From positions 1 to 55,746 of the forward strand of contig JBIJDW010000001.1 in the NCBI GenBank assembly GCA_044343885.1: a stretch of 55,746 nucleotides of DNA, given 5' to 3'. The notes below the pieces were generated by a model. The model saw nothing but the letters and a program-made list of their open reading frames with translations, made no database searches and was not told the DNA's origin. Both the position numbers and the translations under genes were made by a program. Below are positions 14,488 through 36,122 of the stretch, piece after piece (position 1 is the stretch's first letter; every line of letters begins with the position of its first letter). Source of the DNA: Kiritimatiellia bacterium (GTDB lineage Bacteria > Verrucomicrobiota > Kiritimatiellia > RFP12 > JAAYNR01).

Positions 14488-15276
14488 ATGGTTTCCAACA
14501 GGGAGAAGGAAAATGCAGCCGGCTTTAAATACGGCAGCAACGGCCCTCATAGCAGTCGCACCCTGATGCTGGACAGCGTGTCCAAGTGTCTGGATGTTTT
14601 GTCCGTCGGCGCGAGTTATGCCGATTACCAGACGGGCATAGTCGATCAAAACATCCTTGGAAAGCGAACCGAGGCGACACGTAAAGAATCTTTCCGCCGT
14701 TTGCGTGAGTTGTATGCCCTCGATCCCTTGGTGCCGCTGTTTCGCATCTACCGGGAACTGGATGCTTTGGACCCCGTTTCCCGCCCATTGCTATCACTCC
14801 TTGTCGCCAGCGCGCGCGATCCACTGCTGCGTGCCACTTTTCCTGTTATCCTAGGCTCGCGTGAGGAGGAACCCATTGGTGCGGAACATTTTGACAATGC
14901 CTTGGAACATTGCTTTCCCGGCCACTTTCGCCCTGCCATCCGCGCAGCTACGGCCAGGCATATCGCTTCGACCTGGACACAGTCCGGCCATCTCACGGGC
15001 CGACGCCCGAAGTTTCGCGCCCGCGTCGTACCCACGCCTGCCGCGCTCGTGATGGCACTGCTTCTGGGGACGTTGCAGGGGATTCACGGTGCAGCCCTGT
15101 TCGGAACCACCTGGTGTCAGATATTGGATTTGAACGCTGCAGAGGCGCAATCTCTGGCCTCTCTGGCGCATCGGGAGGGGTTGCTCGACCTGCGGGCGGT
15201 GGGCACGGTTGTTGCCGTTGCCTTCCCCCGTTTCACTGCGGCCCTGAATACCGGAGACGCACATGAGCCATTGTGA
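14488..15276 (+). CDS. brxA: BREX protein BrxA (DUF1819-like)
   Basis: It sits immediately upstream of, and overlaps, brxB. The segment IVDQNILGKRTEATRKESFRRLRELY resembles DUF1819. Start set at the ATG at 14488. Confidence 0.6.
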   Translation: MVSNREKENAAGFKYGSNGPHSSRTLMLDSVSKCLDVLSVGASYADYQTGIVDQNILGKRTEATRKESFRRLRELYALDPLVPLFRIYRELDALDPVSRPLLSLLVASARDPLLRATFPVILGSREEEPIGAEHFDNALEHCFPGHFRPAIRAATARHIASTWTQSGHLTGRRPKFRARVVPTPAALVMALLLGTLQGIHGAALFGTTWCQILDLNAAEAQSLASLAHREGLLDLRAVGTVVAVAFPRFTAALNTGDAHEPL

Positions 15277-15823
15277 CCGGCTGATTGAAAACTATCGGCG
15301 ATTCGTGCGCCTGCCCTGGTCTGGAAACTTGGCTGGCAAGCAACGGGTCTGGTTCGCCGTCTATCCCCCATCGGAGGAGCGACGGGTCCGAGCCCACCTT
15401 CAGGAGTTTCAGGTCGCCACGTTGGACGCCGGACACAAATGGCAGGCAGTCGACATCACCGACCTGCCCGCCCGCTGGCTTGCTGGCCATCGCTACGGTG
15501 CGGGTTATTTCGCCGACCCTACCGCTATTCCGGCTGTCGAGGAGGACATCCGGCAGGCCGCCGCCGACGTTCTGGAAGAGGCGTTACAGGCATCTTGTGC
15601 CGATGCGGAAACCGTTGTCGCCGTGACGGGGGCCGGATCGCTCTACGGTTTTACGCATGTCTCTTCCGTCGTCTCCAAGATTGAAGATTCTATTCGCGGG
15701 CGCCTGCTGCTATTCTTTCCAGGCGAATACGAACGCAACCTCTACCGCTTTATGGATGCCCGCGACGGCTTCAACTACATGGCCGTGCCAATCACCTCAA
15801 ACGAAAGCGTACTACAACCGTGA
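15263..15823 (+). CDS. brxB: BREX protein BrxB (DUF1788)
   Basis: RVWFAVYPPSEERRVR and FFPGEYERNLYRFMDARDGFNYMAVPI are characteristic of DUF1788. Confidence 0.85.
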   Translation: MSHCDRLIENYRRFVRLPWSGNLAGKQRVWFAVYPPSEERRVRAHLQEFQVATLDAGHKWQAVDITDLPARWLAGHRYGAGYFADPTAIPAVEEDIRQAAADVLEEALQASCADAETVVAVTGAGSLYGFTHVSSVVSKIEDSIRGRLLLFFPGEYERNLYRFMDARDGFNYMAVPITSNESVLQP

Positions 15824-18800
15824 AAAACAGGGACCTTTACCAGAAAGACCCCCTCAGTTTCGAGTTGCTGAACAACGGCGTCTCGAAAGTCGGGGAAGTC
15901 GGGATCGACCCGGAACAGCTTAAGACATTGCGCTTTGAATTGGAGACTTTTGTTTGCGACGGAGAGTATGCCAAAGGGCTTGAACGCATCCTGAGCGCCT
16001 ACCTGGGCGGTATGAATCGCTCGGAGCAGCAGGCCGTCTGGGTCAGCGGTTTTTTTGGCAGCGGTAAAACGCACCTGGTCAAGATGCTGCGCTACCTGTG
16101 GGAAGACTTTGTCTTTCCGGACGGCGCCAACACCCGCTCCATTGTCGTGTTGCCCGCAAACATCAGCGACCTGCTAAAGGAACTGACGACCCGCTCGCGC
16201 CGCTATCAGGGATTGCGCGCTGCGGCTGGTACGCTGGGTGCAGGAAACATGGACAGTGTGCGCGTAGCTTTTCTCCAACTGGTATTCCGGGCCGCCGGCT
16301 TGCCTGAAAACCTTGCGGCTGCCCGGTTTGTTCTTTGGCTCCGCGAAAGAGGCCTGTATGACACGGTCTGCGCCCACTTGAAGGCTCAACGGCTGGATCC
16401 CGCCTCGGAAATGCGCAATTTCTTCGTCTCTCCCAAGCTTGCCGAGGCCCTTGTCGCGGCCGAGGCCAGCTACGGCACGCCGCAAAATGCCCAAGGCGCC
16501 ATTCGCGCGCAGTTTCCGACAAGCTACACCCCCACCATTGACGATTCGCTGCACATCCTTCGCCAGGTCTTTACCAAAGACGACATTTTTCCCTGCGTGC
16601 TGCTTGTCGTGGATGAGATTCAACAGTTCATTGGCGATCGGGTGCAGCGCGCCATGGACGTGCAGGAAATTACGGAACACTGCTGCACGCGATTGGACAG
16701 CCGCCTTCTGATCGTTGGAACAGGCCAGTCGGCCCTTACGGGAACGGCCAGTCTGAGCCGGCTCCAGGCGCGATTCTCCGTCAAGGTGCCCCTGTCCGAC
16801 ACCGATGTCGAGACGGTCATCCGTCGCACCGTCCTGGCCAAGAAGCCTGAAAAGAACGCCACCATCGAGAAGGTTATTGAAAGCAACGCCGGCGAAATCA
16901 GCCGACATTTGCAGAACACCCGTCTCGCCAGCACCGCTGCTGACCGCGCCGTCTACGCCTCCGACTACCCGCTGCTCCCTGTCCGGCGCCGTTTCTGGGA
17001 GAAAGTGCTGCGCAATGTGGACGCCAGCGGCACCACGGCGCAATTGCGCACCCAACTTAAGATCGTCTTCGACGCGGCGCGCGAATCGGCCGAATGGAAG
17101 CTCGGCTCCGTCGTTCCGGCGGATTACATCTATGACCAGATCGCTACCGACCTGCTCAACACCGGCATCCTCCAGCGCGAGTATCACGAGATCATCCTCG
17201 GTGCGCGCGACGGAACCCCGGACGGTCTCCTGCGGTCCCGCATCTGCGCCCTCGTCTTCTTGATCGCCCAGCTTCCGCGCACACCCGGTGCGGACGATAA
17301 CGTGCGCGCCACCGAGGAAACCCTGGCCGATCTTCTGGTGTGCAATCTGACCGAAGACGGCCAGAAACTGCGCCAGTCCGTCCCAAGTCTCCTTTCGGGT
17401 CTGGAGTCCGACGGCAAACTGATGCGGGTCGAGAACGAATACTGTCTTCAGACCCGCGAAGGCGCGGGATGGAACCATGATTTCGGCCAACGCCGATCAC
17501 GAATTCTTAATGACGACGCATTGCTCGGAGCGGAACGAGAACGCCTGTTTGGCGAAGCGATAGCCCTTGCCTTGAAGCCCCTGTCTCTCCAGCACGGCAA
17601 TGCGCGCGAACCCCGCAAACTGGAGTATTGCTTATCGGCATCCCGCCCCTCGCAGCCCGATAACGCGCTCTTGCTCTGGGTGCGTCATGGCTGGTCGGAA
17701 TCCCAGACACGCGTCGAGACCGATGCCAAGGCGGCAGGGTCAGAAAGCCCCACACTCTTCGGCTTCCTGCCCCGCGAACGCCACAACGAGTTGAAGCAGG
17801 GCATCGGCTCTCAACTCGCCGCCAGGGAAACGCTGGATGCCCACGGCGTTCCTTCCACGCCGGAGGCCATCCAGGCGGCAAACGCCATGAAGACTCAGCT
17901 CGAAGCGGCCCGCCTGCGCGTCCAGTCTTGCCTCCGCGAGATCATCGCAAACGCCAAGATCTACCTGGGCGGCGGCAATGAAGTCGGCGGTCTCGAATGG
18001 GTGGACAAGGCGAACGCCGCCGCCGCCAACGCCCTTCAACGCCTCTTTCCCCGTTTCGCCGAGGCCGACCATGCGAGTTGGGCACAGGTTCGGAACACCG
18101 CTCGCGGCGGAAACGTGGGCGCGTTGCAGGTGGTGGGCTACCAGGGGGAAACGGTTCGCCACCCCGTCTGCAAGGCCGTGTACGATTTTATCGGCGCCGG
18201 CAAGAAGGGCAGAGAGGTACGCGAACAGTTCCGGAGCGCGCCCTTCGGCTGGCCGCAGGACGCGGTGGACGCCGCACTGGTCATTCTGACCCTCGCCGGC
18301 AATCTCCGCGCCGCAGCGAACGGACAGCCGATTCTGGCAACGGCCATCGGACAGGACCAGATCGGCTCGCTCTCGTTTCATGTGGACATCCCGCCGCTGA
18401 CCGTGGTGCAGCGGCTCGACCTGAAAGCCCTTTTCCAGAAACTCAGTGTCACCACACCGAACGGACAGGAGTCCGCCGCTGCCGGACAGTTTCTCGTCAA
18501 GTTGCTGGAACTGGCCCAAGCCGCCGGGGGAGAACCGCCCAGCCCCGAAACGCCCCCCGTCAAACCGATCCGCGATCTGCAAACCGAAAGCGGGAATGCC
18601 CAGCTTTTGGCCATCCACCAGCAAAAGGATGCTTGGGCGCAGAGCATCGGCGCCTGGACGACTACCCGTGACGCCATCGCCAAGCGACTGTCACGTTGGC
18701 AGCGGCTTGCCGAACTGCAGAATCTGGCTGCTGATCTGCCCGAAGCCACCGCCGTGGCCCAGTCCGTGAATGGCATCCTGTCCAGTCGCTGCCTGCTGGC

Positions 18801-19257
18801 TGATCCAGACCCGGTGCCGCCTCTGATTCAGACCCTTGTTGCCGCGCTGCGCACGGCTTTGAACGCCTTGCAGGCCCAGGTGCAAGCCGCGCATGCGGCC
18901 GGCATGGCCAAACTGGACGCCAGCCCGGCGTGGCGCAAGCTGGGCAAGGCCGTGCAATCCGGGCTTCTGGACCGGTTCAATGCCAATCCCCCTCCACCGG
19001 TCGCCGTCGGCACGGAGGAGGAGGTCGTCAACGCCGTGCGGACGGTATCGTTGGCCAACCGGCGCACCGCGATCGAGGCCGTGCCCCAGCGTTTCAGCAT
19101 GGCAATGGAGGAGGCTATCCATCTGGCGGAGCCCAAGGCCGTGCGCGTCACGTTGCCCTCGGCGACCATCAAGGACGCGCAGGAGCTGGACGCTTGGTTG
19201 AAGGGCGCCAAGGCGGCCGTCGAGGCCAAGCTCAAGGACGGGCCGGTGATCGTATGA
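15820..19257 (+). CDS. brxC: BREX ATPase BrxC/PglY
   Basis: 1145 aa. Walker A is GFFGSGKTH and Walker B is LLVVDEIQQF. The GTG start overlaps the brxB stop (GTGA). Confidence 0.88.
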   Translation: MKNRDLYQKDPLSFELLNNGVSKVGEVGIDPEQLKTLRFELETFVCDGEYAKGLERILSAYLGGMNRSEQQAVWVSGFFGSGKTHLVKMLRYLWEDFVFPDGANTRSIVVLPANISDLLKELTTRSRRYQGLRAAAGTLGAGNMDSVRVAFLQLVFRAAGLPENLAAARFVLWLRERGLYDTVCAHLKAQRLDPASEMRNFFVSPKLAEALVAAEASYGTPQNAQGAIRAQFPTSYTPTIDDSLHILRQVFTKDDIFPCVLLVVDEIQQFIGDRVQRAMDVQEITEHCCTRLDSRLLIVGTGQSALTGTASLSRLQARFSVKVPLSDTDVETVIRRTVLAKKPEKNATIEKVIESNAGEISRHLQNTRLASTAADRAVYASDYPLLPVRRRFWEKVLRNVDASGTTAQLRTQLKIVFDAARESAEWKLGSVVPADYIYDQIATDLLNTGILQREYHEIILGARDGTPDGLLRSRICALVFLIAQLPRTPGADDNVRATEETLADLLVCNLTEDGQKLRQSVPSLLSGLESDGKLMRVENEYCLQTREGAGWNHDFGQRRSRILNDDALLGAERERLFGEAIALALKPLSLQHGNAREPRKLEYCLSASRPSQPDNALLLWVRHGWSESQTRVETDAKAAGSESPTLFGFLPRERHNELKQGIGSQLAARETLDAHGVPSTPEAIQAANAMKTQLEAARLRVQSCLREIIANAKIYLGGGNEVGGLEWVDKANAAAANALQRLFPRFAEADHASWAQVRNTARGGNVGALQVVGYQGETVRHPVCKAVYDFIGAGKKGREVREQFRSAPFGWPQDAVDAALVILTLAGNLRAAANGQPILATAIGQDQIGSLSFHVDIPPLTVVQRLDLKALFQKLSVTTPNGQESAAAGQFLVKLLELAQAAGGEPPSPETPPVKPIRDLQTESGNAQLLAIHQQKDAWAQSIGAWTTTRDAIAKRLSRWQRLAELQNLAADLPEATAVAQSVNGILSSRCLLADPDPVPPLIQTLVAALRTALNALQAQVQAAHAAGMAKLDASPAWRKLGKAVQSGLLDRFNANPPPPVAVGTEEEVVNAVRTVSLANRRTAIEAVPQRFSMAMEEAIHLAEPKAVRVTLPSATIKDAQELDAWLKGAKAAVEAKLKDGPVIV

Positions 19258-20873
19258 AAGAGGCTGGCTCTGAGGCACCGAACATGGGCACGAAGCATCC
19301 GGAACCCGACGACCGTCCGTTCGGGCACGGCGAAGGGCTTGCTTTGGAGTTCAAGCGTGCCGCCGACCGGCTGCCGTCGAGTTTCTTCGAGACCGTCTGC
19401 GCCTTCCTGAACATGGACGGCGGTCTGATCGTGTTGGGCGTCGAGGATGACGGCCGCATCTCGGGCGTGGAGCCGGAATCTGTTGCCCAGATTATGGCCG
19501 ACATCGCGAACCTCTCCAACAATCCGCAGAAACTGGACCCGCCCTATCTGCTGTTTCCCCACGATGAACAGATCGGAGGCGGACGGGTCATCACCGTGCA
19601 GGTGCCAGCCAGCTCGCAGGTTCATCGTACGGGGGGCGAGGTCTTCCTGCGCAGCGAAGACGGCGACTACCGCATCAAGGACCCCTACCAGATCGCGGGG
19701 CTGGTCAACCGCAAGCTCAGTTTCTACACCGAGCAGCGCGTACTGCCGTGGCTTGGCATCGGCGACTTGCGCCCCGATCTGTTCGACCAGGCCCGCGCGC
19801 TGCTCAACGCCCAGCGTCGCAACCATCCGTGGGCGAAACTCCGTGACGAGGAATTACTTCAGATCGGCGGCTTTATCCGCAGGGACCCGCTGACATCCAA
19901 GACCGGATACACGCTCGCCTCCGCGCTCATGTTCGGCACGGACGCCACCATTCAGCAGGCCGCTCCGGCGATGGTCTTCGACGCTCTTCTGAGACGGGAC
20001 AACGTGGACCGATACGACGACCGCGTGATGCTCTACACCAACCTCATCGAAGCCTTCGGCGGACTCATGGCATTCGTTGAAAAGCACCTGAACGACCCCT
20101 TCTACCTGGAAGGCACGGAACGGGTCAGCTTGCGTGACCGCATCTTCCGGGAACTGGTCTCCAATCTCATCGCGCACCGCGAATACACCAGCGCCGCTCC
20201 GGCGACCCTGACGATCTTCCGCGACAAGGTCGTCTTCCGCAACCCCCATGTGCCGCATCTGCGGGGGCGCATCGATCCGAAGCGGTTTACCCCCTTCCCG
20301 AAGAACCCGACGATCTGCCGCTTCATGCTGCAACTCGGCCGCTACGAACAGGCCGGCTCCGGCGTGTACAATGTCACCAAGTACCTGCCTATCTACACCC
20401 TAGGAGCTTCGCCGGTCTTCGAGGAATACGCCGATGTCTTCGAGACGACCATTCCGCTGACTCCCCCGGAATCGGGAACCGGCGCACAAGTCACCGGACA
20501 AGTCACCGGACAAGTCACCGGACAAGTCGCGGCACAAGTCACGGGTAAAGTCGAAGGTGAAGTCGGCGAGCAAGCCAGTGAGCATGTTGATGAGCAAGCT
20601 ACCCCACAAGTCACCCCACAAGTCACCCCACAAGTCACCCCACAAGTCATAGCGGTTCTTAGGACGGCTGAGAACGTGGCCACGGCGGGGGCACTGCAGA
20701 AGGCCGCTGGACTAAAGGATCGGGTCCATTTCCTGAAGGCGTACTTGGAGCCGCTATTGAAGGCCGACATCCTTGAACGAACCATTCCCGACAGACCCCG
20801 CAGCCGCCTCCAAAAGTACCGGCTCACGCCCAAAGGCGCGAAATGGCTGAAGCAGCACAAGGATAACCAATAA
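19254..20873 (+). CDS. AlbA_2/Schlafen-type ATP-binding putative DNA-binding protein (RecG-like regulator family)
   Basis: LEFKRAADRLPSSFFETVCAFLNMDGGLIVLGVEDDG matches the AlbA_2 core. The C-terminus has xQVx repeats followed by PDRPRSRLQKYRLTPKG. ATGA overlap with brxC. Confidence 0.75.
   Translation: MKEAGSEAPNMGTKHPEPDDRPFGHGEGLALEFKRAADRLPSSFFETVCAFLNMDGGLIVLGVEDDGRISGVEPESVAQIMADIANLSNNPQKLDPPYLLFPHDEQIGGGRVITVQVPASSQVHRTGGEVFLRSEDGDYRIKDPYQIAGLVNRKLSFYTEQRVLPWLGIGDLRPDLFDQARALLNAQRRNHPWAKLRDEELLQIGGFIRRDPLTSKTGYTLASALMFGTDATIQQAAPAMVFDALLRRDNVDRYDDRVMLYTNLIEAFGGLMAFVEKHLNDPFYLEGTERVSLRDRIFRELVSNLIAHREYTSAAPATLTIFRDKVVFRNPHVPHLRGRIDPKRFTPFPKNPTICRFMLQLGRYEQAGSGVYNVTKYLPIYTLGASPVFEEYADVFETTIPLTPPESGTGAQVTGQVTGQVTGQVAAQVTGKVEGEVGEQASEHVDEQATPQVTPQVTPQVTPQVIAVLRTAENVATAGALQKAAGLKDRVHFLKAYLEPLLKADILERTIPDRPRSRLQKYRLTPKGAKWLKQHKDNQ
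20487..20649 (+). repeat. Two blocks of 12-nt in-frame tandem repeats (QVTG x3+, TPQV x4)
   Basis: The unit caagtcaccgga occurs three times perfectly, then degenerates (20487-20570). The unit ccacaagtcacc occurs four times (20602-20649). Confidence 0.9.
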
Positions 20874-20925
20874 CCACCCTCCACCTTCCACCCTCCACCC
20901 TCCACCTTCCACCCTCCACCCCTCC
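20874..20925. repeat. Oligo-periodic repeat (ccaccct/ccacctt)n upstream of pglX
   Basis: Sequence ccaccctccaccttccaccctccaccctccaccttccaccctccacccctcc. Its 16-nt core tccaccttccaccctc recurs inverted at 24259..24276, just after the pglX stop. Confidence 0.9.
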
Positions 20926-20932: not shown

Positions 20933-23900
20933 ATGACCTCCCTTTCCAAACCCCTCCGCAACGAGCTCTCTAGCGCCGTACTCGCTGCCCGCAAGCTGGC
21001 CGAGGCGGCTGCGGGCAAGGCGTTGCACGGCCTTGGCGTGGACGAGGCCGATCCGCCGGAACACCTCGACACCGAGGGGCGTCGGCTGCGTGTCCGACTC
21101 CGCTCTCAGGCGCGGCAGTTGGGCGACTGCGAGGACGCCGCCAAACGGGGATGCCTCGAAATCCGCCATCTCTCCGAAAAGATCGCCTATGACCACTGGC
21201 ATCGCCTGCTGTTCGCTCGCTTCCTGGCCGAGAACGACCTGCTGATCTCGCCCGATCACGGTGTCGGCGTCAGCCTAGCCGACTGCGAGGAACTCGCGCC
21301 CGCCCTGGGTCTCCGCGATGGATGGGAGGTCGCCACCCGCTTCGCCTCCCGGATGCTGCCGCAGATCTTCCGGCCCGACGACCCCGCCGACAGCGTCGTC
21401 TTCGCCCCCGAGGATCGCGTCGCCTTGCGCAAGCGGGTCACCGCTTTGTCCGGCGACATCTTCCTCGCCAACGACAGCCTCGGCTGGTGCTACCAATTCT
21501 GGCAGGCGGAGCGGAAGGAGGAGGTCAACAAGGCCGGCAACAAGATCGGCGCCGATGAATTGCCAGCCGTCACGCAACTGTTCACCGAGGATTACATGGT
21601 GGACTTCCTCTTGGACAACACCCTCGGCGCGTGGCACGCAGGGAAAGTTTTCAGTGTTCAGTCTTCAGTTTTCAGCACAGAGGCGGAGGCACGCGCGGCC
21701 TTCGCCTTGCCGGCGTGCGAATGGAAATATCTGCGGCTCATCCAAGGTGAGGACGGCAAATGGACTCCCGCCGCTGGCACGTTTGACGGCTGGCCCAAGT
21801 CTGCCGCCGCCATCCGGGCGCTCGACCCGTGCATGGGCAGCGGGCATTTCGTCGTGGCGATGTTCGCGCGTCTGGTGGCCTTGCGCCTGGCCGAGGAAGA
21901 ACTGGACGAAGCGGCGGCGGTGGCGGCGGTCATCCGTGACAACCTCTTCGGCTTGGAGATCGACCCCCGATGCACGCAGATCGCCGCCTTCAACCTGGCG
22001 CTGGCCGCGTGGCGGCGCGTAGGCCACTGCAAGCTGCCGGCGATGAACCTGGCCTGCTCCGGACTCGCGCCGAACACCCCGGAAAAGGAGTGGGTCGCGC
22101 TGGCCGGCGATACCGAGCGCCTTCAGCGCGGAATGTCACGCCTCTACGCCCTGTTCAACAACGCCCCGGTCTTGGGCAGTCTGATTAACCCCATAGCGGC
22201 GAAAGACGACCTGCTCGATGCCAATTACCATGAGGTCGCCGACCTGCTCACCCAAGCGCTGGCGCAAGAGTCTCATTCATCCTTCATCATTCATCCTTCA
22301 TCCATGGAATCCGCTGTGACCGCGCGTGGAATCGCCAAGGCGGCGGAAATTCTCGCCGGCCAGTTCACGCTCGTCGCCACCAACGTGCCGTATCTGATGC
22401 GCAGAAAACAAGACGACGCGCTGCAAGATTTTTGCGTGGCAGATTTCCCGGATTCCAAAAACGACTTGGCAACTGTTTTCATTGAGCGAGGGTTTTCATT
22501 TCTCGGTCGGTTCGGTAGTCAAGCTCTAGTCACGCCTCAAAACTGGCTATTCCTTGGGAGCTACGAACATCTTCGTTCGGATTTCCTAAAGGAACGGAAA
22601 TTCAATTTGGTCGCGCGTCTTGGTGCGAAAGGCTTTCGCACGCCGATGTGGGATTTCAATGTCGCGCTTTTAATAATGTCGGCTGACCGACCTTTCGAGG
22701 TTCACCCTCTTAATGGTGTTTCTGTGGAATCGAAGGAAGACCCGTCGGAAAAAGCGAATGAGCTAGTCCACGCCGATATAACGAGCGTTCCTCAAAAGTC
22801 GCAACTTCTCAATCCTGCTGCGGCCCTCACATTCTCCGCGCCGTCGGAGTTGTCCCCTCTCAGTCGCTACGCATACGCACCCAACGGTTCACATGGCGGT
22901 GATTCTCAGCGGCATCGTCGGCCATTTTGGGAGTTCAATCGCGTGAGTTCTGATTGGCGAACATTCCAAGGAACATTCGGAGAAACCAGCATGTTTACTG
23001 GGCGAGAACAGCTTTTCTCGTGGTTTCGCGATGGTGCTGACCATCGTGAGAACCCAAGTGCTTATATCAAAGGAGAAGATGTGTTCGGAAAGCCTGGCGT
23101 TGTTGTCAGTATGATGGGAGCGCTTCCGGTTTCGATATATTCAGGAGACATGTTTGACATAAGTTGCACACCGATTGTCCCCAACGATCCAAGCCACCTG
23201 CCAGTGATTTGGGCTTACTGTTCCTCACCAGAATACCACAAGGAAGTGCGTCTCATTGACCAGGCTCTCAAGGTGACAAATGCCACGCTCGCCAAAGTCC
23301 CCTTCGACCTTGCGCACTGGCAGAAGGTGGCGGCGGAGAAATATCCGGATGGATTGCCAAAACCGTTTTCCAGCGACCCGACGCAATGGCTGTTCAACGG
23401 CCATCCTGCCGGTTCGGACCAGCCTTTGCAGGTAGCCGTGGCGCGGTTGCTCGGCTACCGCTGGCCGCGCCAGACCGGATCCGAGTTCCCGGATTGCCCC
23501 GCGCTCGAACCGGACGGCCTGGAGAAATATGCCGATGCCGATGGGATCGTCTGCCTCAACGCGATCAAGGGCGAGCAGCCCGCCGCCGAGCGGCTCCGGG
23601 CCTTGCTTGCCGCTGCATTCGGCGCGGACTGGAGCGCCTCCACCCTCTCCCATCTCCTCTCCACCCTCCACCCTCCACCGTCCACCCTTGACGACTGGCT
23701 CCGCAACGGCTTCTTTGAGCAGCACTGTCAACTTTTCCATCAGCGTCCATTCATCTGGCACATCTGGGACGGCCTGCGCGATGGCTTCAGCGTGCTGGTC
23801 AACTACCACAAGCTCAACCGTTCCGCCTTGGAGAAACTGACCTACACTTACCTCGGCGACTGGATCGGACGCCAGAAGGCCGCCGTTGCCGCCGGAGAAG

Positions 23901-24259
23901 AGGGCAGCGACGCCAAACTGGCCGCCGCCCAGCAGCTCCAGTCCTCGCTGAAGCTGATCATCGAAGGTGAGAAGCCCTACGACATCTTCGTCCGCTGGAA
24001 GTCGCTGGAGAAGCAACCCATCGGGTGGGTGCCGGATCTGAACGACGGCGTGCGCATGAACATCCGCCCGTTCCTGTCCGTCCCCGACGTCGGCCGCAAG
24101 GGCGCCGGCATCCTCCGCTGGTCCACCAAGATCAAGTGGGACAAAGATCGCGGCAAAGACGTCCCCAGCGCCCCCTGGTACAAGGTCTTCAACGGCGACC
24201 GCATCAACGACCACCACCTGACGCTGGCGGAGAAGCGTGAGGCGAGGGAGAAGGGTTGA
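20933..24259 (+). CDS. pglX: BREX N6-adenine DNA methyltransferase PglX
   Basis: 1108 aa. Motif I is LDPCMGSGHFVV and motif IV is ATNVPY. Its position follows brxC. Confidence 0.88.
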   Translation: MTSLSKPLRNELSSAVLAARKLAEAAAGKALHGLGVDEADPPEHLDTEGRRLRVRLRSQARQLGDCEDAAKRGCLEIRHLSEKIAYDHWHRLLFARFLAENDLLISPDHGVGVSLADCEELAPALGLRDGWEVATRFASRMLPQIFRPDDPADSVVFAPEDRVALRKRVTALSGDIFLANDSLGWCYQFWQAERKEEVNKAGNKIGADELPAVTQLFTEDYMVDFLLDNTLGAWHAGKVFSVQSSVFSTEAEARAAFALPACEWKYLRLIQGEDGKWTPAAGTFDGWPKSAAAIRALDPCMGSGHFVVAMFARLVALRLAEEELDEAAAVAAVIRDNLFGLEIDPRCTQIAAFNLALAAWRRVGHCKLPAMNLACSGLAPNTPEKEWVALAGDTERLQRGMSRLYALFNNAPVLGSLINPIAAKDDLLDANYHEVADLLTQALAQESHSSFIIHPSSMESAVTARGIAKAAEILAGQFTLVATNVPYLMRRKQDDALQDFCVADFPDSKNDLATVFIERGFSFLGRFGSQALVTPQNWLFLGSYEHLRSDFLKERKFNLVARLGAKGFRTPMWDFNVALLIMSADRPFEVHPLNGVSVESKEDPSEKANELVHADITSVPQKSQLLNPAAALTFSAPSELSPLSRYAYAPNGSHGGDSQRHRRPFWEFNRVSSDWRTFQGTFGETSMFTGREQLFSWFRDGADHRENPSAYIKGEDVFGKPGVVVSMMGALPVSIYSGDMFDISCTPIVPNDPSHLPVIWAYCSSPEYHKEVRLIDQALKVTNATLAKVPFDLAHWQKVAAEKYPDGLPKPFSSDPTQWLFNGHPAGSDQPLQVAVARLLGYRWPRQTGSEFPDCPALEPDGLEKYADADGIVCLNAIKGEQPAAERLRALLAAAFGADWSASTLSHLLSTLHPPPSTLDDWLRNGFFEQHCQLFHQRPFIWHIWDGLRDGFSVLVNYHKLNRSALEKLTYTYLGDWIGRQKAAVAAGEEGSDAKLAAAQQLQSSLKLIIEGEKPYDIFVRWKSLEKQPIGWVPDLNDGVRMNIRPFLSVPDVGRKGAGILRWSTKIKWDKDRGKDVPSAPWYKVFNGDRINDHHLTLAEKREAREKG

Positions 24260-29299: not shown

Positions 29300-29402
29300 G
29301 TAGTGACATGTTTCGCATGTAAGGAGAATCAATTGAATACGGAGTGCAACATCGAGAGCGGAAAAAATAGTCGAAAAAAGGGCTTGCATATGGACGTGTA
29401 CA

Positions 29403-29432
29403 ATGATATACCGTGTGTACACGGTATATCAT
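29403..29432. promoter_or_regulatory. 30-bp palindrome, putative operator 1 (abiE promoter region)
   Basis: atgatataccgtgt-gt-acacggtatatcat, with perfect 14-nt arms. Confidence 0.6.
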
Positions 29433-29520
29433 ACCTTACACGTCGCGTGCCTGCGCCTCGTTCGGCAATGATGATTGCCCAAGAATTGTTGAGTTTGGAG
29501 TTGCATGGTGCCAGTGCAGT

Positions 29521-29550
29521 ATGATAAAACGTGTTTACACGTTTTATCAT
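29521..29550. promoter_or_regulatory. 30-bp palindrome, putative operator 2 (abiE promoter region)
   Basis: atgataaaacgtgt-tt-acacgttttatcat, with perfect 14-nt arms. It shares the half-site ATGATAwAmCGTGT with operator 1 and ends 23 nt before the abiEi start. Confidence 0.6.
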
Positions 29551-29573
29551 ATCGTTGATCCGTTGAGGTTCTC

Positions 29574-30461
29574 ATGACCAGACTGACAACCCCTAACAAG
29601 TACGAACTCGCGAACCTGTTGTGTCTTCCACGGCGATATCGCGAGTTGAAGCCCCTGCTGCTTGCGTATATGCCCAAGACGCCGTACAGGCTTCTGGCCT
29701 CCTTTGAGACCGCCTTACGCAGTGATGGCCTCTTGATGGATATGGAACTGAATTCGGATGTCGGGCATGCCGTAACCCTCTATGCGTCCGTCGATCCGGC
29801 CAAGTGGAACACCTACCATGTGGCACAAGCTCTGCGTCCTCAGGGGTACTTTTGCAATCTTACCTCCCTGTACCATCACGGGCTGACCAATCAAGTCCCA
29901 GCACGTGTGTATACGGCCGTGGAAGAGAACAGGGCGAAGGATCAGGCGCAGGAAAAGCGATCCAGGCTCTCGGACGATGCGATATTCGATGCGTTCATTC
30001 AGCCTCACCGCGTGAGCAAGCACAACTATCGGTTCCGGGACAGCGAGATCACGATCACCGAGCGCGTGAGCCACGGTTGCATTGGCGTCGAGAGCGTGGG
30101 CGAAAATAATCGCACCTGCCCCATGGGTGCCCGTGTCACCAGTTTGGAGAGAGCGATGATAGACGCCGTTGTTCACCCCCAGTACAATGGCGGTCTCGCT
30201 GCCGTCGTCGAGATGCTCCGGATAGGCGCGCCCGAGGCAGACGTGAAGCGATTGCTCGGCATTTACGACGCATGCGCTTTTGCGTATCCATACTGGCAAG
30301 CGCTGGGGTTTCTGTTTGAGAGGATAGGCGCGGCCAATATCGCCGATGCTTTTGCTCGGCGCTCACGGCCGGTCAACAAGTTCTATCTGGATCACAACGC
30401 CAAGACATCGTGGGCCTTCGACTCCACATGGTGTATCTACTACCCCAAGGGGGTCGTATGA
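29574..30461 (+). CDS. abiEi: AbiEi-family type IV antitoxin/transcriptional regulator
   Basis: SLYHHGLTNQVPARVY and VTSLERAMIDAVVHPQYNGG resemble AbiEi (COG5340). Paired with the downstream DUF1814 gene by an ATGA overlap. Confidence 0.7.
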   Translation: MTRLTTPNKYELANLLCLPRRYRELKPLLLAYMPKTPYRLLASFETALRSDGLLMDMELNSDVGHAVTLYASVDPAKWNTYHVAQALRPQGYFCNLTSLYHHGLTNQVPARVYTAVEENRAKDQAQEKRSRLSDDAIFDAFIQPHRVSKHNYRFRDSEITITERVSHGCIGVESVGENNRTCPMGARVTSLERAMIDAVVHPQYNGGLAAVVEMLRIGAPEADVKRLLGIYDACAFAYPYWQALGFLFERIGAANIADAFARRSRPVNKFYLDHNAKTSWAFDSTWCIYYPKGVV

Positions 30462-31375
30462 GAATCGAAGACGTGATTGACGAGAGCATTCTGGCTGTTT
30501 TCAAGGATCGCATCCTTTCGCGCCATATGGTGTTGAAAGGGGGCAGCGCCCTCCGCATGCTTGAACACGACCGGACTCGTCTCTCGATTGACGCAGACTT
30601 CTCCGTTCGCGGCTCCATCCGATCATCGGAGCCGTTCTTCGCCAGAATGGAAACGACCCTCTCCCGCGCATTCGCCCCTCGTGATTATTGCGTGATGGAC
30701 TTCCGGGTAACTCCCCGGCCCAAGTGCAGGAAACCACGGATGCCGAGGTGGTGGAAAGGCTGGCTTTGCCAGTTCAAGCTGCTGGCCCGCGAATTCACAA
30801 CCCAGCCGCTGGAGGCGCAACGGCGGCGCGCGTTGGTACCCGAGGGGTCCAACTCGCCGGTGATCGAAATCGAGGTTAGCGAGCACGAGTATTGCGGTAC
30901 TGAAAGGAAGAGACGCATTCGTGGCGTGGTGGTACACGGATACACAAGAGAACTGCTTGTCTTGGAGAAACTGAGGGCAATATGCCAGCAGCACCCCGAG
31001 TACCAGTTCCGTTCGAACAAGAATCGTGCACGGGATTTCTATGACATTCACAGGTTGTGCGGCGGCAGAATGGGGACTCGGTTCGTTCAACGGTGTCGCA
31101 AGGACCTGCCGGCCGTGTTTGGAGCCAAGGCTGTTCCGGTGGATCTGCTGCGCGCACTTTGGGATCCGGAGTTCCTCGTCGTGCAGCAACGAGGTTTCGC
31201 CCAGGTCGTAGACGACGTCAGGGGTGCCGTGCGGGAGTTTGATGTGTATGTGGAATGCCTGCGCTACTTGGTCCAGCGCATCTGCCCTGGAATGCCACGG
31301 TCGGAAACGACTCCCTCGAGCTTACAATCATCATCGCCAGGAGCAACCACATGGACGCAAAAGCACGAACAGTGA
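30458..31375 (+). CDS. abiEii: AbiEii/AbiGii nucleotidyltransferase toxin (DUF1814)
   Basis: VLKGGSALRML..RLSIDADFSV at the N-terminus and RARDFYDI later in the protein. Start set at the ATG at 30458. Confidence 0.8.
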   Translation: MRIEDVIDESILAVFKDRILSRHMVLKGGSALRMLEHDRTRLSIDADFSVRGSIRSSEPFFARMETTLSRAFAPRDYCVMDFRVTPRPKCRKPRMPRWWKGWLCQFKLLAREFTTQPLEAQRRRALVPEGSNSPVIEIEVSEHEYCGTERKRRIRGVVVHGYTRELLVLEKLRAICQQHPEYQFRSNKNRARDFYDIHRLCGGRMGTRFVQRCRKDLPAVFGAKAVPVDLLRALWDPEFLVVQQRGFAQVVDDVRGAVREFDVYVECLRYLVQRICPGMPRSETTPSSLQSSSPGATTWTQKHEQ

Positions 31376-31587
31376 GCGAGATTCTGCATGCGCCAGGGCA
31401 TTACATCGTGCCACTGTTTCAGCGCTCGTACTCCTGGCACAAAGCCAATTGGCAACGGCTGAACGACGATGTGATGGCGTTGGTGGATGATTCGACGCAC
31501 CATGTGCATTTCCTGGGGCCGCTGGTCTGCACGATCGGCAAAAGCGTGCCCGGATGTCTGCCGACCTATCAGTTTAAGTTGTCTTAG
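31351..31587 (+). pseudogene. Truncated DUF262 (GmrSD/BrxU-like) N-terminal fragment
   Basis: YIVPLFQRSYSWHKANWQRLNDDV matches the DUF262 signature (IPxFQRxYxW). The ORF stops after ~78 aa, whereas full proteins are several hundred aa long. Confidence 0.7.
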
Positions 31588-31650: not shown

Positions 31651-34074
31651 ATGGCAAAGCAAAGAATAAAGAGGACAGCAGTAATCGAAGCCAAGCCCTA
31701 CACGGCTGGCTCGAACTGGGTGGGTTCCGTGCAGGATGAGGACGCGACAACCATCGGCGAACGGCTCGCGCAGCGCGTGCGGGCGGTTGCAGAGGCCTAT
31801 ACGACGGGCGACCAGACGCCACCGGCCGCGATTCTGTGGCCCGATGGTGACCGGCGCTGGGCTGGCGTGTTGGCGGAATTGAAGACACTGATCCCGGAGC
31901 TTTATGTGCTGGGCGATTTTGCACCGACAGACAAAACCGGACCGGCAATCTGGCTCCGATGTGTCGAGGCAAGAACCGTGCCCGAGCATCCTGCTTCGGG
32001 GCAGGCACCGATATTCTATCTCCCCGGCGTCAGCCGGCAAGCCCTGCGTGCCGTCGAGGAGAGTCCCGTTGAGTTGGATCCTCTGATTGAACTGCAGTTT
32101 CGCGGGGCCGTGTGGTCGCATCCGAACGGCCGGGACTGGACCCCCTTCGCCTTTCTCACCTCGACCTACGGCGGCTTGGGGCTGGATGTGGCGGACACAG
32201 CCGATACGTCCGTGGCGTTGGACCGGTCACTGGCCGTGCTGCTGAACGAGCGTATCGCCAGTCTGGCCGGATCCCGCCTTGACGCTCCCTTCTTGAATGC
32301 GCTGCTGTCACCTGACCTTCCTGCCGAGATTCTTCGCTGGATGAACGATCCTGCAGAGGCGCGGAAGCGCAAGCCCGATTCGGAGTGGCAGGCTTTCTGC
32401 GCGCAATGCGCGGCCGATTTCCATCTACACCCCGAGACAGACGGCGAACTGCGGGCAGCGGAGCTAATGGGAAACCGTTCCGGTGAGTGGGGCAAGGTCT
32501 GGAAGCGCTTTACCGAAGCACCGAACCGCTATCCCGCTGTGGCCGTTTTGCTCGAACGGGCCTCGCCGACCACGGACGGTATGCTGGGGCTTGATCGCGA
32601 GGTTTGGCCCTGTTTTAACACCCAGGACGAGTCGGACGTTGCTAAAGTGCTCCTGGCGCTGAAAGACAGCCATTCCGAACAGGCTGCCTCCGCTGTCCTG
32701 GAGTTGGAGAAAAAGCACGGCTGCCGGCGCGGCTGGGTCTGGCGCGAACTGGGTCGGGCGCCGTTGGCGGTGGCGCTAGAACACCTGAGCCTTCTGGCGA
32801 CGTTGACACGGAAGGCGCTCGCAGCGGCGGATGCCACCGGAATCGCGGAACAGTTCGCGCAAATCGGATGGGAGGCTGATGCGGCGGCCATAGCAGCACT
32901 GGCGGGTGGAACAGCACCGGGTACGGACGATGCGATCGCCACCGCAGTGCGGGCGCTCTATCTGCCTTGGATTGACCAGTCCGCGCGGAATTTACAGCGG
33001 TTCGCTGCACAGGCGCCCACCTGTATCCAGCCGCGGCTGGAACCGGCGACGCCTGCAGATGGCCGGGTGATTCTTTTTGTGGACGGCCTGCGGTTTGATC
33101 TTGCGCAAAGATTGAGCCGTCTTCTGCACACGATGGGATCCCCCTCCGAACTGCAATGGGACTGGGCTGCTTTCCCTTCGGTGACGGCAACTGGAAAAGC
33201 GGCTGTCTCGCCGATGGCGACCGTTCTGACCGGCGGCGGGCCGGAAGAGGAGTTTGCACCATGCGGCAGCGAAAACGGGCATCGATGGAATGCGGACCGG
33301 TTCCATGCCTTTCTGAAGGCGCAGGCCATTCAATGCCTCCAAGGACGCCTCTGCGGTGACCCGGCAGGGCGCGCGTGGGCTGAAACCGGCACGCTGGATA
33401 GCCGCGGGCACAATGAGGGTGTGAAGGCGGCGAAGACGCTGGATCAGGAAGTCCGAAATATTGCCACCCGCATCCGGGAACTGCTCGATGCCGGCTGGCG
33501 GGAGATCGTCGTGGTGACCGATCACGGGTGGCTGCTCGTGCCCGGCGGCTTGCCAAAGGTGGAACTGTCGCATTACGTAGTCGAAAACCGTTGGGGCCGT
33601 TGCGCGGCGATCAAGGCGGCCGGAGCCACCGATCTGCCCACCCTTCCCTGGTATTGGAACCCCTCTGTCACAGTCGCCACGCCACCCGGTGTGGGCTGCT
33701 TCCGCGCCGGGGTGGAATACGCCCATGGCGGGTTGTCGCTCCAGGAGATGGTCATTCCCCGCCTGACCGTGCGCGCCGGCATGACGGCTAACAGCCAAAG
33801 CAAGATCAGCGGGATCAAATGGGTTAACCAGCGCTGCCGCCTGAGCGTCCAGAATACCCTGCCCGGCCTGCAGGCCGATATCCGCAGCCGTCCCGCAGAT
33901 GCCCGGTCTTCCAAAGTGGAGGGAGGACAGCCGCGCGAGATCGGAACGGACGGAACGGTTTCGCTCATTGTCGGCGATGACCGGGAAGCCGGTAATGCCG
34001 CCGTTATCGTGCTGCTGTCCCCTGACGGAACCCCGATACACACAATCCCCACGGTTATTGGAGAAAACGGATGA
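31651..34074 (+). CDS. pglZ: BREX alkaline-phosphatase-superfamily protein PglZ
   Basis: 807 aa. Contains ILFVDGLRFDLAQRL and VVVTDHGWLLVPGG. Its position precedes brxL. Confidence 0.85.
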   Translation: MAKQRIKRTAVIEAKPYTAGSNWVGSVQDEDATTIGERLAQRVRAVAEAYTTGDQTPPAAILWPDGDRRWAGVLAELKTLIPELYVLGDFAPTDKTGPAIWLRCVEARTVPEHPASGQAPIFYLPGVSRQALRAVEESPVELDPLIELQFRGAVWSHPNGRDWTPFAFLTSTYGGLGLDVADTADTSVALDRSLAVLLNERIASLAGSRLDAPFLNALLSPDLPAEILRWMNDPAEARKRKPDSEWQAFCAQCAADFHLHPETDGELRAAELMGNRSGEWGKVWKRFTEAPNRYPAVAVLLERASPTTDGMLGLDREVWPCFNTQDESDVAKVLLALKDSHSEQAASAVLELEKKHGCRRGWVWRELGRAPLAVALEHLSLLATLTRKALAAADATGIAEQFAQIGWEADAAAIAALAGGTAPGTDDAIATAVRALYLPWIDQSARNLQRFAAQAPTCIQPRLEPATPADGRVILFVDGLRFDLAQRLSRLLHTMGSPSELQWDWAAFPSVTATGKAAVSPMATVLTGGGPEEEFAPCGSENGHRWNADRFHAFLKAQAIQCLQGRLCGDPAGRAWAETGTLDSRGHNEGVKAAKTLDQEVRNIATRIRELLDAGWREIVVVTDHGWLLVPGGLPKVELSHYVVENRWGRCAAIKAAGATDLPTLPWYWNPSVTVATPPGVGCFRAGVEYAHGGLSLQEMVIPRLTVRAGMTANSQSKISGIKWVNQRCRLSVQNTLPGLQADIRSRPADARSSKVEGGQPREIGTDGTVSLIVGDDREAGNAAVIVLLSPDGTPIHTIPTVIGENG

Positions 34075-36122
34075 AAATCGAACTCGACGCCTTGGACCGT
34101 ATCGCCACTGACGCCTTCGAGGGTGTCGTGGTCCGTAAAGATCTTGTTCGCCGATTCAAGGGACAATACCCGGTGCCGACCTACGTCGCAGAGTTTGTTC
34201 TTGGGCGGTACTGTTCCTCGGTGGAGCAAGAGGAAATACAGGAGGGGCTCAAGATCGTAGAACGCCAATTGGGTGAGAAGACCGTGCGCGCCGGAGAGCA
34301 AGAACTGTTCAAGGCGCGAGCGAAAGAACTCGGGCAAGTGCGGATCATTGACCTCATCACCGCGCGGCTGGACGCCGCTTCTGACTCCTTTGTGGCTACG
34401 CTGCCAAGCCTTCAACTGAACAACGTTCGCATCACACCCGAGACGGTCAGGGCAAATGAGCGAATGCTGACGGGTGGCTTTTATGCCGAGATCGAGTTGG
34501 CCTATGATCCCACCATCGCACAGGAGAGCAAGGGGCGTCCGTTCGGCGTATCCTCCCTTCGGGAGATTCAGATATCCAAGCGTGACGTGTTGGACACGCT
34601 GTGCCGTGGCAGGGAGATGTTCAGCCTTGCCGAATGGAAGCGGTTTCTGCTTCGCAGCACGGGGCTGGAGCCTGAAAAGCTGAGCGAGCGGGCCTGCGAC
34701 GTGATGCTTCTTCGTATGGTGCCGTTTGTCGAGCGCAATTACAATCTGGTCGAACTCGGTCCCCGAGGGACCGGCAAGAGCCACCTCTACCAGCAGGTCT
34801 CACCCTACGCACATTTGGTATCCGGCGGCAAAACAACCGTGGCCAAAATGTTCGTCAACAACGCCAATGGTCAGCGCGGACTCGTGTGCCAATACGATGT
34901 AGTCTGCTTCGACGAAGTTTCCGGCGTCTCTTTTGACCAGAAGGACGGCGTGAACATCATGAAGGGCTACATGGAATCTGGCGAATTCAGCCGCGGCAAG
35001 GAGAGCATCCGGGCGGATGGCAGCGTCGTGATGGTCGGCAACTTTGATGTAGACGTCCAGCACCAGCAGCGTATCGGTCACCTTCTCGGACCCTTGCCTC
35101 CCGAAATGCGCAACGACACGGCGTTCATGGATCGGCTGCACGCTTACCTACCGGGATGGGATATCCCCAAGATCAGCCGAGAGGTGCTGACCGACCATTT
35201 CGGCCTTGTGAGCGACTTCCTGTCCGAATGTTTCAACCAGCTCAGGCGCCAGAGCCGCGTGAACCAGCTTCAAGGGCGGGTACAATTCGGCGGTGCCTTG
35301 AGCGGCCGTGACGTCAACGCTGTGCAGAAAACCGCCAGCGGATTGATCAAGCTACTTTATCCGAACCCGGCGACGCCCATTCCCGACGACGCCATGGAGT
35401 GGGCGCTCCGACTGGCACTGGAGTCACGCCGACGAGTTAAAGAACAGCAGAAACGCATTGGCGCTGCCGAATACCGCAACACCCATTTCAGTTACCAAAT
35501 GGGCTTGGACGGGGTTGAGCGTTTCGTTTCCACGCCCGAACTTCAAAAAGAGGACAGCATCGGCGCCGATCCCTTGCCGCCGGGCCAGGTGTGGACCATT
35601 TCGCCCGGCGGGATGGACGAGAATCCGGCCCTGTACCGTATCGAAACGGCGGAAGGGCCGGGGTCTGGCATCCGGATTCTGAACCAGCCGGCGCCCGGAC
35701 CCCTCCGGGAGAGCGTCCGTTGCGCCGAGCAGAATCTCTACGGCCGCGCCAAAGCCCTGGTCGGCGAGCGGGATCCACGCGAGCACGAATTCACCATTCA
35801 ACTGCGGGCCTTCGACGCAGCACGCAGCGGCTCCTCGTTGGGCGTCGGCGTCCTCCTGTCACTCTGCGGCGCCCTACTGCAGAAAAGCCTCAAAGCCGGT
35901 CTGGTGGTCGTCGGCGGCTTGAACCTTGGCGGCTCTGTGGATCCCATATACAACGCCGTCTCCGTGGCTGAACTGGCCAACGAAAAAGGCGCCACCGCCC
36001 TGCTAATGCCGGTTTCTGCCCGCAAGCAATTGCTCGATCTCCCGGACGAACTAGCCACTCAGATCGACATCCAGTTCTACGCCGACGCCCGCGACGCCCT
36101 TCTCAAGGCGCTGGTCGAGTAA
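34071..36122 (+). CDS. brxL: BREX Lon-like protease BrxL
   Basis: 683 aa. Contains ELGPRGTGKSHLYQQVSPY and a Lon-protease-like C-terminus GGLNLGGSV. ATGA overlap with pglZ. Confidence 0.85.
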   Translation: MKIELDALDRIATDAFEGVVVRKDLVRRFKGQYPVPTYVAEFVLGRYCSSVEQEEIQEGLKIVERQLGEKTVRAGEQELFKARAKELGQVRIIDLITARLDAASDSFVATLPSLQLNNVRITPETVRANERMLTGGFYAEIELAYDPTIAQESKGRPFGVSSLREIQISKRDVLDTLCRGREMFSLAEWKRFLLRSTGLEPEKLSERACDVMLLRMVPFVERNYNLVELGPRGTGKSHLYQQVSPYAHLVSGGKTTVAKMFVNNANGQRGLVCQYDVVCFDEVSGVSFDQKDGVNIMKGYMESGEFSRGKESIRADGSVVMVGNFDVDVQHQQRIGHLLGPLPPEMRNDTAFMDRLHAYLPGWDIPKISREVLTDHFGLVSDFLSECFNQLRRQSRVNQLQGRVQFGGALSGRDVNAVQKTASGLIKLLYPNPATPIPDDAMEWALRLALESRRRVKEQQKRIGAAEYRNTHFSYQMGLDGVERFVSTPELQKEDSIGADPLPPGQVWTISPGGMDENPALYRIETAEGPGSGIRILNQPAPGPLRESVRCAEQNLYGRAKALVGERDPREHEFTIQLRAFDAARSGSSLGVGVLLSLCGALLQKSLKAGLVVVGGLNLGGSVDPIYNAVSVAELANEKGATALLMPVSARKQLLDLPDELATQIDIQFYADARDALLKALVE

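Follow-up and report, generated by a model that had tools for sequence, protein, structure and literature searches.

Defence genes at both flanks of pglX in a type 1 BREX operon of a Kiritimatiellia bacterium

A type 1 bacteriophage exclusion (BREX) operon that is crowded with other defence genes raises the question of whether these genes are exchangeable passengers or parts of the BREX machinery. Such an operon is present in the DNA described here, a stretch of 55,746 nucleotides (the window) that is the entire contig JBIJDW010000001.1 of a metagenome-assembled genome (3.3 Mb, 472 contigs) of a Kiritimatiellia bacterium (GenBank assembly GCA_044343885.1). The locus is most probably a complete BREX on an integrative island in tRNA-Val, in which two permissive seams of the operon, between brxC and pglX (slot 1) and between pglX and pglZ (slot 2), are filled with independent and exchangeable defence modules.

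Defence genes embedded in BREX operons are known, and a review terms them 'extraneous' or 'adventitious' (PMC12707154). In some 7,000 of 9,000 genomes, pglX and pglZ are separated by one or more genes, BrxU and PARIS being among the commonest known systems there (PMC11341690). Another study counts at least 1,017 taxa with BREX-linked genes for a Schlafen domain followed by a histidine-kinase-like region and a winged helix-turn-helix (Schlafen-HisK-wHTH), and for OLD-type ATPases the number of such taxa is at least 1,242 (PMC12839542). The concept of BREX as a scaffold for such genes (BrxU, PARIS, Schlafen, OLD-type ATPases) is already published, and the present locus is an unusually crowded example of the published pattern and no new kind of system. 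What is particular here is the presence of four modules in slot 2 together with a filled slot 1, the existence of near-identical variants, statistics specific to each slot, and an unannotated gene family.

The BREX core and its two cargo slots

The operon brxA-brxB-brxC-pglX-pglZ-brxL is complete, canonical in order and encoded on one strand (+). All six proteins are matched essentially end to end by PADLOC profiles (Table 1), with no internal stop in any of them. Pfam agrees wherever it has models, its PglZ model falling just under the cut-off (24.8 vs 25) on a protein that PADLOC matches at full length. The catalytic motifs are also kept. BrxC has the Walker A sequence GFFGSGKT at residue 77, the Walker A of BrxL is intact, and PglX, which is matched by Pfam Eco57I and N6_Mtase, has motif I as DPCMGSG at residue 298. 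Motif IV of PglX reads NVPY at residue 484, which is not a defect because nearly every aligned relative has the same form and NVPY is thus the clade-wide form of this motif. The brxA reading frame is open from a TTG at 14383, and the first ATG, at 14488, is its likely start. The overlap is 14 nt at brxA/brxB and 4 nt at both brxB/brxC and pglZ/brxL; start/stop overlaps are also seen at brxC/Schlafen, gajA/gajB, abiEi/abiEii and abiEii/GmrSD remnant, so that seven gene pairs are joined in this way. An earlier note on this DNA had described six apparently intact type 1 BREX genes with start/stop overlaps at many junctions, and both descriptions hold. No BrxR/WYL regulator is seen upstream of brxA.

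The best public match of PglX is only 62% identical, and because close relatives carrying this pglX are lacking, the comparison was made with distant BREX loci and with four short near-identical contigs. The distant set was drawn from species-representative genomes and from metagenomes and comprises 160 loci that code for relatives of PglX (47-62% identity). The six core genes were located by tblastn, removal of duplicates left 153 non-redundant loci, and 72 comparison loci hold all six genes near-complete. A junction was counted as occupied if it contained more than 300 bp of extra DNA. By this measure, slot 1 is occupied in 47 of 137 loci and slot 2 in 67 of 125, while each of the junctions brxA-brxB (1/102), brxB-brxC (1/107) and pglZ-brxL (1/100) is occupied a single time. 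Both flanks of pglX are cargo slots, and the remaining three junctions almost never take cargo. Occupation of one slot tends to go with that of the other (28/64 vs 9/52, p=0.003), and cargo open reading frames (ORFs) of at least 100 aa are co-oriented with BREX in 188 of 203 cases. Slot 2 exceeds 7 kb in only one of 125 loci, which puts the window, with 7,391 bp between pglX and pglZ, at the crowded extreme, and its cargo set is shared by none of the 160 loci. These numbers add to a published pattern. Of the five junctions, two alone take cargo, and, as described below, these two slots differ in content.

Cargo turnover is fast. Loci L054 and L056, whose BrxC, PglZ and BrxL are 92-95% identical (BrxC distance 0.08), differ both in slot 1 (29 vs 1890 bp) and in slot 2 (4530 vs ~0 bp). 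Slot 2 measures ~0 bp in L006 and 4430 bp in L096 (BrxC distance 0.09), and its content likewise differs within the close pair L005 and L088.

Individual events are exposed by the four short metagenome contigs, which carry a 93% identical homologue of the 258-aa gene of slot 2 and catch cargo turnover in progress. Three of them (L082-L084) are 95-98% identical to the window and have no AbiE. In L083 and L084, a sequence 94.8% identical to window 28545-29327 is followed by one base and then by a sequence 98.3% identical to 31345-31574, and in the window AGGAG microhomology is found at both edges of the AbiE module that lies in between. The GmrSD start codon in these two contigs follows the 258-aa gene after a Shine-Dalgarno sequence and 12 nt, and their sequence reads on beyond 31574 into LIDGQQRL; that of the window departs from it there and meets a stop after 13 nt. 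In L082, the homology starts 22 nt inside the 258-aa gene, and the upstream genes differ from Gabija. Three differences, namely the presence or absence of AbiE, a cut or continuing GmrSD and another upstream module, separate sequences that otherwise show this near-identity. The module found in Gabija's place in L082 (L082:263-1719) pairs an ABC ATPase (AAA_15/AAA_21) with a protein of 283 aa, in which an HNH-like Cys/His motif was read by eye; this protein has no Pfam match. The pair resembles the dyad of OLD-ABC and HNH of PMC12839542.

The view of the earlier note that the pglX-pglZ junction is a hotspot of gain and loss is borne out by content that varies over the 153 loci, between cores more than 90% identical and among the near-identical contigs. 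The comparison with related BREX loci, which that note asked for, finds the insertions variable and no fixed arrangement in relatives. Its picture of an operon split by three insertions is to be amended. The insertions in slots 1 and 2 stand, although the former is not a one-off but the filling of a second slot of the same kind. The supposed third, after brxL, splits nothing, as the ORFs at 36231-37258 lie outside the operon, between BREX and the next island cassette.

BREX rides on a 43.9-kb integrative island in tRNA-Val. The direct repeat at the two island ends corresponds to the 3' part of this tRNA gene, and an integrase gene adjoins the partial copy. None of 40 genomes that share its genus, family or order contains this pglX, and the island was therefore acquired horizontally.

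Table 1. Features of the BREX locus and of the island that carries it (positions in the window)
Feature	Position	Strand	Evidence and remarks
Partial tRNA-Val copy, island end (att-type direct repeat)	9743..9804	-	62 nt, 97% identical to 53651-53712, 43,908 bp away
Tyrosine integrase	9946..11589	+	Pfam Phage_integrase E 7.7e-16; adjoins partial tRNA copy
brxA	14488..15276	+	PADLOC BrxA PDLC02450, 264.9 bits, nearly full profile
brxB	15263..15823	+	PADLOC BrxB 220.1 bits, profile 1-182 of 184; Pfam BrxB above cut-off
brxC, P-loop ATPase	15820..19257	+	PADLOC BrxC-PglY 1333 bits, profile 1-1145 of 1146
Schlafen-type cargo, 539 aa	19254..20873	+	Pfam SLFN_AlbA_2 63.4 bits; Fic-like_C wHTH 66.4 bits
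Heptamer repeat tract CCACCYT	20874..20925	+	~7 tandem copies; fills 59-nt spacer before pglX
pglX, N6-adenine methyltransferase and specificity subunit	20933..24259	+	PADLOC PglX 1527 bits, full length
gajA, OLD-family ABC ATPase and TOPRIM, 742 aa	24369..26597	+	PADLOC GajA 862 bits, full length
gajB, UvrD-like helicase, 630 aa	26594..28486	+	PADLOC GajB 770 bits, full length; Walker A GAGSGKT
Unannotated gene, 258 aa	28523..29299	+	36 nt after gajB
AbiE module, 2,017 bp	29328..31344	+	In window; absent from near-identical contigs L083, L084
Two 14-2-14 palindromes	29403..29550	.	Half-site ATGATAnAnCGTGT; upstream of abiEi
abiEi, antitoxin/regulator	29574..30461	+	PADLOC AbiEi 48 bits; Pfam AbiEi_1 weak, under cut-off
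abiEii, nucleotidyltransferase toxin	30458..31375	+	Pfam AbiEii 61.7 bits vs cut-off 22.5
Truncated GmrSD/BrxU-type gene, 78 codons	31351..31587	+	Pfam GmrSD_N 30.9 bits, under cut-off
pglZ	31651..34074	+	PADLOC PglZ 885.5 bits, profile 3-773 of 774
brxL, Lon-like	34071..36122	+	PADLOC BrxL 962 bits; Pfam BrxL_N, BrxL_ATPase, Lon_C
Post-BREX stretch	36123..37520	+	Small ORFs 36231-36539, 36556-37098, 36932-37258; outside operon
tRNA-Val (TAC), other island end	53651..53728	-	ARAGORN gene 53652-53728; direct repeat 53651-53712

Content of the two slots

The protein of slot 1 is a predicted Schlafen nuclease that would combine a histidine-kinase-like ATPase region with a C-terminal wHTH, the ATPase region being a weak match (HATPase_c_4, 21.4 bits vs cut-off 26). 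Its E-x4-E-x-K motif is EGLALEFK (residues 27-34). This architecture would correspond to the 'HisKinase-HTH' class, to which 19% of prokaryotic Schlafens are assigned in a preprint (bioRxiv 10.1101/2025.07.24.666596). The ATG of the gene overlaps the TGA of brxC as ATGA, and the earlier proposal of an AlbA_2/Schlafen-type gene coupled in this way to brxC is confirmed by the overlap and the SLFN_AlbA_2 match. Since its GC content at third codon positions (GC3, 0.756) is like that of brxC and pglX, the gene is probably a long-standing resident of slot 1.

Among occupied loci, Schlafen-type cargo is found in slot 1 in 12 of 45 and in slot 2 in 5 of 68 (p=0.007). Three of the five slot 2 matches (L018, L116 and L069) are short and follow an OLD-type ATPase of ~900 aa, and that of L118 follows an unclassified 572-aa protein. 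Because most slot 2 Schlafens are short and stand behind an OLD-type ATPase, the long form that stands alone is hardly found outside slot 1. The arrangement in L018, L116 and L069 is a recurrent module of its own, in which the large ATPase gene precedes one for a short Schlafen (413-423 aa, with E-x4-E-x-K), and it is distinct from the stand-alone Schlafen-HisK-wHTH of slot 1.

Slot 1 also contains short repeats. The linker of the Schlafen protein between the ATPase-like region and the wHTH is encoded by eight in-frame 12-nt repeats (window 20483-20650), which specify (VTGQ)n and (VTPQ)n. The heptamer tract downstream of the gene has an inverted 19-nt copy, with 3 mismatches, at 24254-24272 across the pglX stop. 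A change in the copy number of the heptamer could alter pglX expression. Similar repeats are observed inside the 3' part of pglX (window 23626-23701). The repeat gives 8 matches where 0.04 are expected.

In slot 2, the earlier note had listed within ~7.4 kb an OLD nuclease with a UvrD helicase, an unknown gene, abiEi/abiEii and a DUF262 remnant, all of which are recovered with PADLOC and Pfam. The first two genes, which overlap by 4 nt, are identified by their sequences as Gabija. GajA is aligned by PADLOC over residues 1-733 with 1-745 of 752 profile positions, matches Pfam AAA_15 and OLD-like_TOPRIM, and has the Walker A sequence GANNSGKT. The AbiE genes are preceded by a spacer of 274 nt (43.8% GC), and the palindromes upstream of abiEi are probably AbiEi operators with a putative promoter. 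AbiEii has the nucleotidyltransferase motif GGS...DADF, and its gene overlaps abiEi as ATGA and extends in its reading frame 25 nt into the GmrSD remnant. The remnant itself matches the N-termini of PADLOC Orf5, HEC-06 and SspE. Pfam finds no GmrSD_C match (the DUF1524/HNH nuclease end) in it, and the DGQQR motif is likewise absent. It appears to be a deletion product cut just before this motif, and because of this truncation it is predicted to be non-functional. GC3 of the slot 2 cargo is 0.58-0.69 vs 0.70-0.75 for brxC, pglX, pglZ and brxL.

The kinds of gene found in slot 2 of the window are also those that other loci keep there. OLD-type ATPase cargo is present in slot 1 of 2/45 and in slot 2 of 19/68 occupied loci (p=0.001), and GmrSD cargo in 1/45 and 11/68, respectively (p=0.026). 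When several genes are stacked in slot 2, the stack usually opens with an OLD-type ATPase and ends with GmrSD, an order that the window shares, and in L155 a GajA/GajB pair stands directly 3' of pglX.

The 258-aa gene has no Pfam or PADLOC match and no PDB sequence match. A confident AlphaFold2 model of its product (pLDDT 88, pTM 0.81) has no fold match in the PDB, the best E value being 0.17. In all, 211 relatives are found at E<=1e-3 among 1.84 billion representatives, and 60 aligned members include fusions to Schlafen (three), TIR (one) and DUF4062 (one). One member (L167:1430-2143) is flanked by hsdS and hsdR in a type I restriction-modification (R-M) operon, and others are found in a BREX slot 2 (L166:2835-3608) and at L168:630-1406. 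In the Logan contig L166, the end of pglX is followed by a patatin gene, the 258-aa homologue (56% identical) flanked by two unknown genes, unrelated AbiEi/AbiEii and PglZ, and this PglZ, at 53% identity, is the closest seen. The gene is usually the first of a pair, the second of which varies. It may encode GmrSD, as in the near-identical contigs, a PD-(D/E)xK-like motif protein, as in L166, DUF3800 or an unknown protein. Judged by these homologues and their neighbours, the family is real and defence-associated, and the locus flags it as a candidate defence component. The protein might act as a sensor or adaptor that accompanies a nuclease, which is a sensible guess but nothing beyond that.

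Taken together, these regularities may be read as a positional order in which Schlafen-HisK-wHTH stands at brxC-pglX, an OLD-type ATPase in slot 2 by pglX and GmrSD by pglZ, and the 258-aa protein with its varying nucleases may form new two-gene defence modules inside BREX and type I R-M operons. The full form of this proposal, a positional grammar of BREX cargo with guards tied to particular subunits and the 258-aa gene as a new sensor/adaptor domain, is a tentative one and rather unlikely.

Transcription seams and alternative readings

Why are these two junctions permissive? In Escherichia fergusonii, the BREX transcripts that have been mapped are ABCUX and ZL. Promoters upstream of brxA and of pglZ serve both this system and that of Salmonella, where they account for the main starts and where brxC is followed by a leaky terminator (PMC12707154). 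Since pglZ-brxL has its own promoter in the studied BREX systems, slot 2 would be at a transcription-unit seam, and we infer by this analogy that both slots coincide with such seams, where insertion harms least. They are probably tolerated for this reason. Scanning of the window locus gives no terminator-like site in its intergenic gaps, and plus-strand promoter-like intergenic sites of the sigma-70 type occur only in the AbiE palindromes. Intrinsic terminators or sigma-70 promoters as markers of the slot borders were therefore rejected beyond these palindromes. Co-transcription of all cargo, called probable in the earlier note, is plausible; AbiE, for its part, has the palindrome-bearing region upstream of it.

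By homology, BREX would methylate a host motif via PglX and block replication of unmethylated phage DNA. Both permissive seams would hold independent, co-oriented defence modules, which would enter and leave by recombination at short intergenic junctions, and the cargo would probably use read-through transcription together with its own promoters. From what is known of the families, DNA cleavage would be the task of Gabija, abortive infection would result from AbiE and from Schlafen, and the former role of GmrSD would have been the restriction of modified DNA. Such modules probably act as autonomous second layers of defence.

Several points weigh against the reading of the locus as two seams filled with independent, exchangeable modules. 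Gene identities, their intactness, the variability of the slots, the AbiE polymorphism and the GmrSD breakpoint are observed, whereas the activities of BREX and of each cargo module are inferred from genes. No promoter is found in the 63 nt between the GmrSD remnant and pglZ, where the consensus applied was that of sigma-70, maybe not the host's type. None of the variant contigs exceeds 2.7 kb or shows its location within a BREX operon. The junction they reveal fits a gain of AbiE here or a loss elsewhere alike, and each of the events may have run in either direction. The Schlafen gene, with its core-like composition, tight coupling to brxC and preference for slot 1, could be more than a passenger. 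This last point leads to the alternative that the cargo consists of guards or back-up effectors wired into BREX, which would sense phage inhibition of its subunits as PARIS senses the PglX-binding Ocr and whose location beside pglX would mirror this functional link. The preference of Schlafen for slot 1 and of OLD and GmrSD for slot 2, with OLD first and GmrSD last, would be expected of such guards, as would the core-like GC3 and the ATGA overlap of the Schlafen gene. PMC12839542 argues for 'backup effectors', and Ocr, an inhibitor of BREX, sets off PARIS (PMC11341690). However, embedded modules have proved independent wherever this was tested: BrxU restricts alone (PMC12707154), and Salmonella deleted for ariAB retains methylation and defence by BREX (PMC11341690). 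Moreover, the families concerned occur outside BREX, the 258-aa family in a type I R-M operon and Gabija and AbiE as stand-alone systems, and the cargo differs between near-identical cores. Wired-in guards are accordingly regarded as possible but doubtful.

The remaining alternatives concern the origin and state of the locus. The insertions might have uncoupled pglX from pglZ-brxL in a decaying BREX, of which the truncated GmrSD would be a sign of general erosion. A deletion inside the slot has indeed occurred, and slot 2 is at the extreme of size. Natural inactivation of BREX genes is reportedly frequent. Decay is nevertheless improbable in view of six full-length core ORFs with intact catalytic motifs, of gaps without terminator-like sites and of occupied slots that are the norm among intact loci. 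Both slots could also have been created by specificity swapping, in which the whole pglX is replaced as an exchangeable cassette that drags flanking DNA with it. At first sight PglX evolves apart from its neighbours, the distance correlation being 0.83 for BrxC-PglZ vs 0.66 and 0.58 for PglX with BrxC and PglZ, respectively; in close pairs, PglX distances are 0.2-0.36 vs 0.04-0.17 for BrxC and PglZ, and for L018/L134 0.30 vs 0.04-0.08 for BrxC, PglZ and BrxL. The excess divergence is, however, confined to PglX residues ~500-780, while the N- and C-terminal parts keep 84-98% identity, in line with the other operon genes. Only an internal segment diverges, and whole-gene exchange was rejected as the origin of the slots, a highly improbable one. 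Least credible of all is that the arrangement was passed on whole, as a fixed composite without turnover, which the variable slot content refutes. The many start/stop overlaps that link neighbours would suit it, but none of the 160 loci shares the cargo set, and near-identical contigs lack AbiE, have a continuing GmrSD or carry another module for Gabija. Two permissive seams with exchangeable modules thus remain the preferred interpretation of the locus.

The divergent segment of PglX deserves mention in its own right. Corresponding to window 22430-23270, it is 14-50% identical in L018/L134, L112/L120 and L010/L098, the other proteins of which are 90-97% identical, and this indicates rapid turnover of a presumed target-recognition region.

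Island neighbourhood and relation to known systems

The other parts of the island contain further genes. Between the integrase and brxA (window 11942-13894), a gene for a RelA/SpoT-domain protein (12510-13250) and small unannotated neighbours are found. The small ORFs after brxL, which may be degraded as the earlier note says, match no Pfam or PADLOC family and have no homologue beside BREX in the 160 loci, for which reason they were rejected as BREX-linked genes; in a three-frame reading, 36556-37258 is possibly one frameshifted gene. Window 37523-42256 encodes an XRE-like HTH protein, an 836-aa radical-SAM protein, an FMN reductase and an HD-CE protein, and looks like another candidate defence cassette. 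A 1,091-aa protein (44077-47352) has 18 Sel1 repeats fused to a trypsin-like protease domain, and the repeats have a 108-nt periodicity in the DNA with copies up to 83% identical. In the chromosomal flank, a 74-nt direct repeat (91% identical; 2485-2558 and 3594-3667, 1.1 kb apart) is located upstream of two unannotated genes.

The locus resembles several known arrangements. In the BREX of Salmonella Typhimurium D23580, an OLD-family ABC-ATPase module, PARIS (ariA/ariB), is likewise located inside a type 1 operon (PMC11341690). In the window, Gabija (a fused ATPase-TOPRIM and a UvrD helicase) is found instead of PARIS, its slot holds three more modules, and slot 1 is filled as well. The pEFER BREX of E. 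fergusonii, likewise of type 1, contains the GmrSD-type gene brxU, whose product acts independently of BREX (PMC12707154, PMC11341690). However, brxU precedes pglX and thus occupies slot 1, whereas the GmrSD gene of the window is in slot 2 and truncated, and no brxR regulator is found upstream of the window operon. For a suicide nuclease housed within a restriction operon that relies on methylation, the classic precedent is prrC in the type IC EcoprrI locus (PMC12707154); PrrC is functionally wired to its host enzyme, whereas such wiring would be hypothetical for any cargo gene of the window. Schlafen-HisKinase-wHTH proteins (PMC12839542, bioRxiv 10.1101/2025.07.24.666596) share with the slot 1 protein the E-x4-(E/D)-x-K motif, the tight linkage to BREX and, as predicted, the three-part architecture. 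In the parts of the two papers that were consulted, the strong preference for the brxC-pglX junction found here is not stated. Neither of the two prokaryotic Schlafen (pSlfn) proteins shown to defend in the preprint has the HisK-wHTH architecture.

Stand-alone Gabija is similar in its full-length profile matches, catalytic motifs and overlapping gene pair, and differs in that the pair is here nested in a BREX slot. The Bacillus cereus prototypes of Gabija are smaller than GajA (742 aa) and GajB (630 aa) of the window. The same difference in location applies to stand-alone AbiE, which is similar in its profile matches, motif, overlapping gene pair and paired inverted repeats upstream. AbiE of Streptococcus agalactiae is autoregulated and has such paired inverted repeats upstream. 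Collectively, the locus leaves the understanding of BREX and of the embedded systems unchanged, and it is a natural example of layered immunity, in which four or five defence modules are assembled in one operon on a mobile island.

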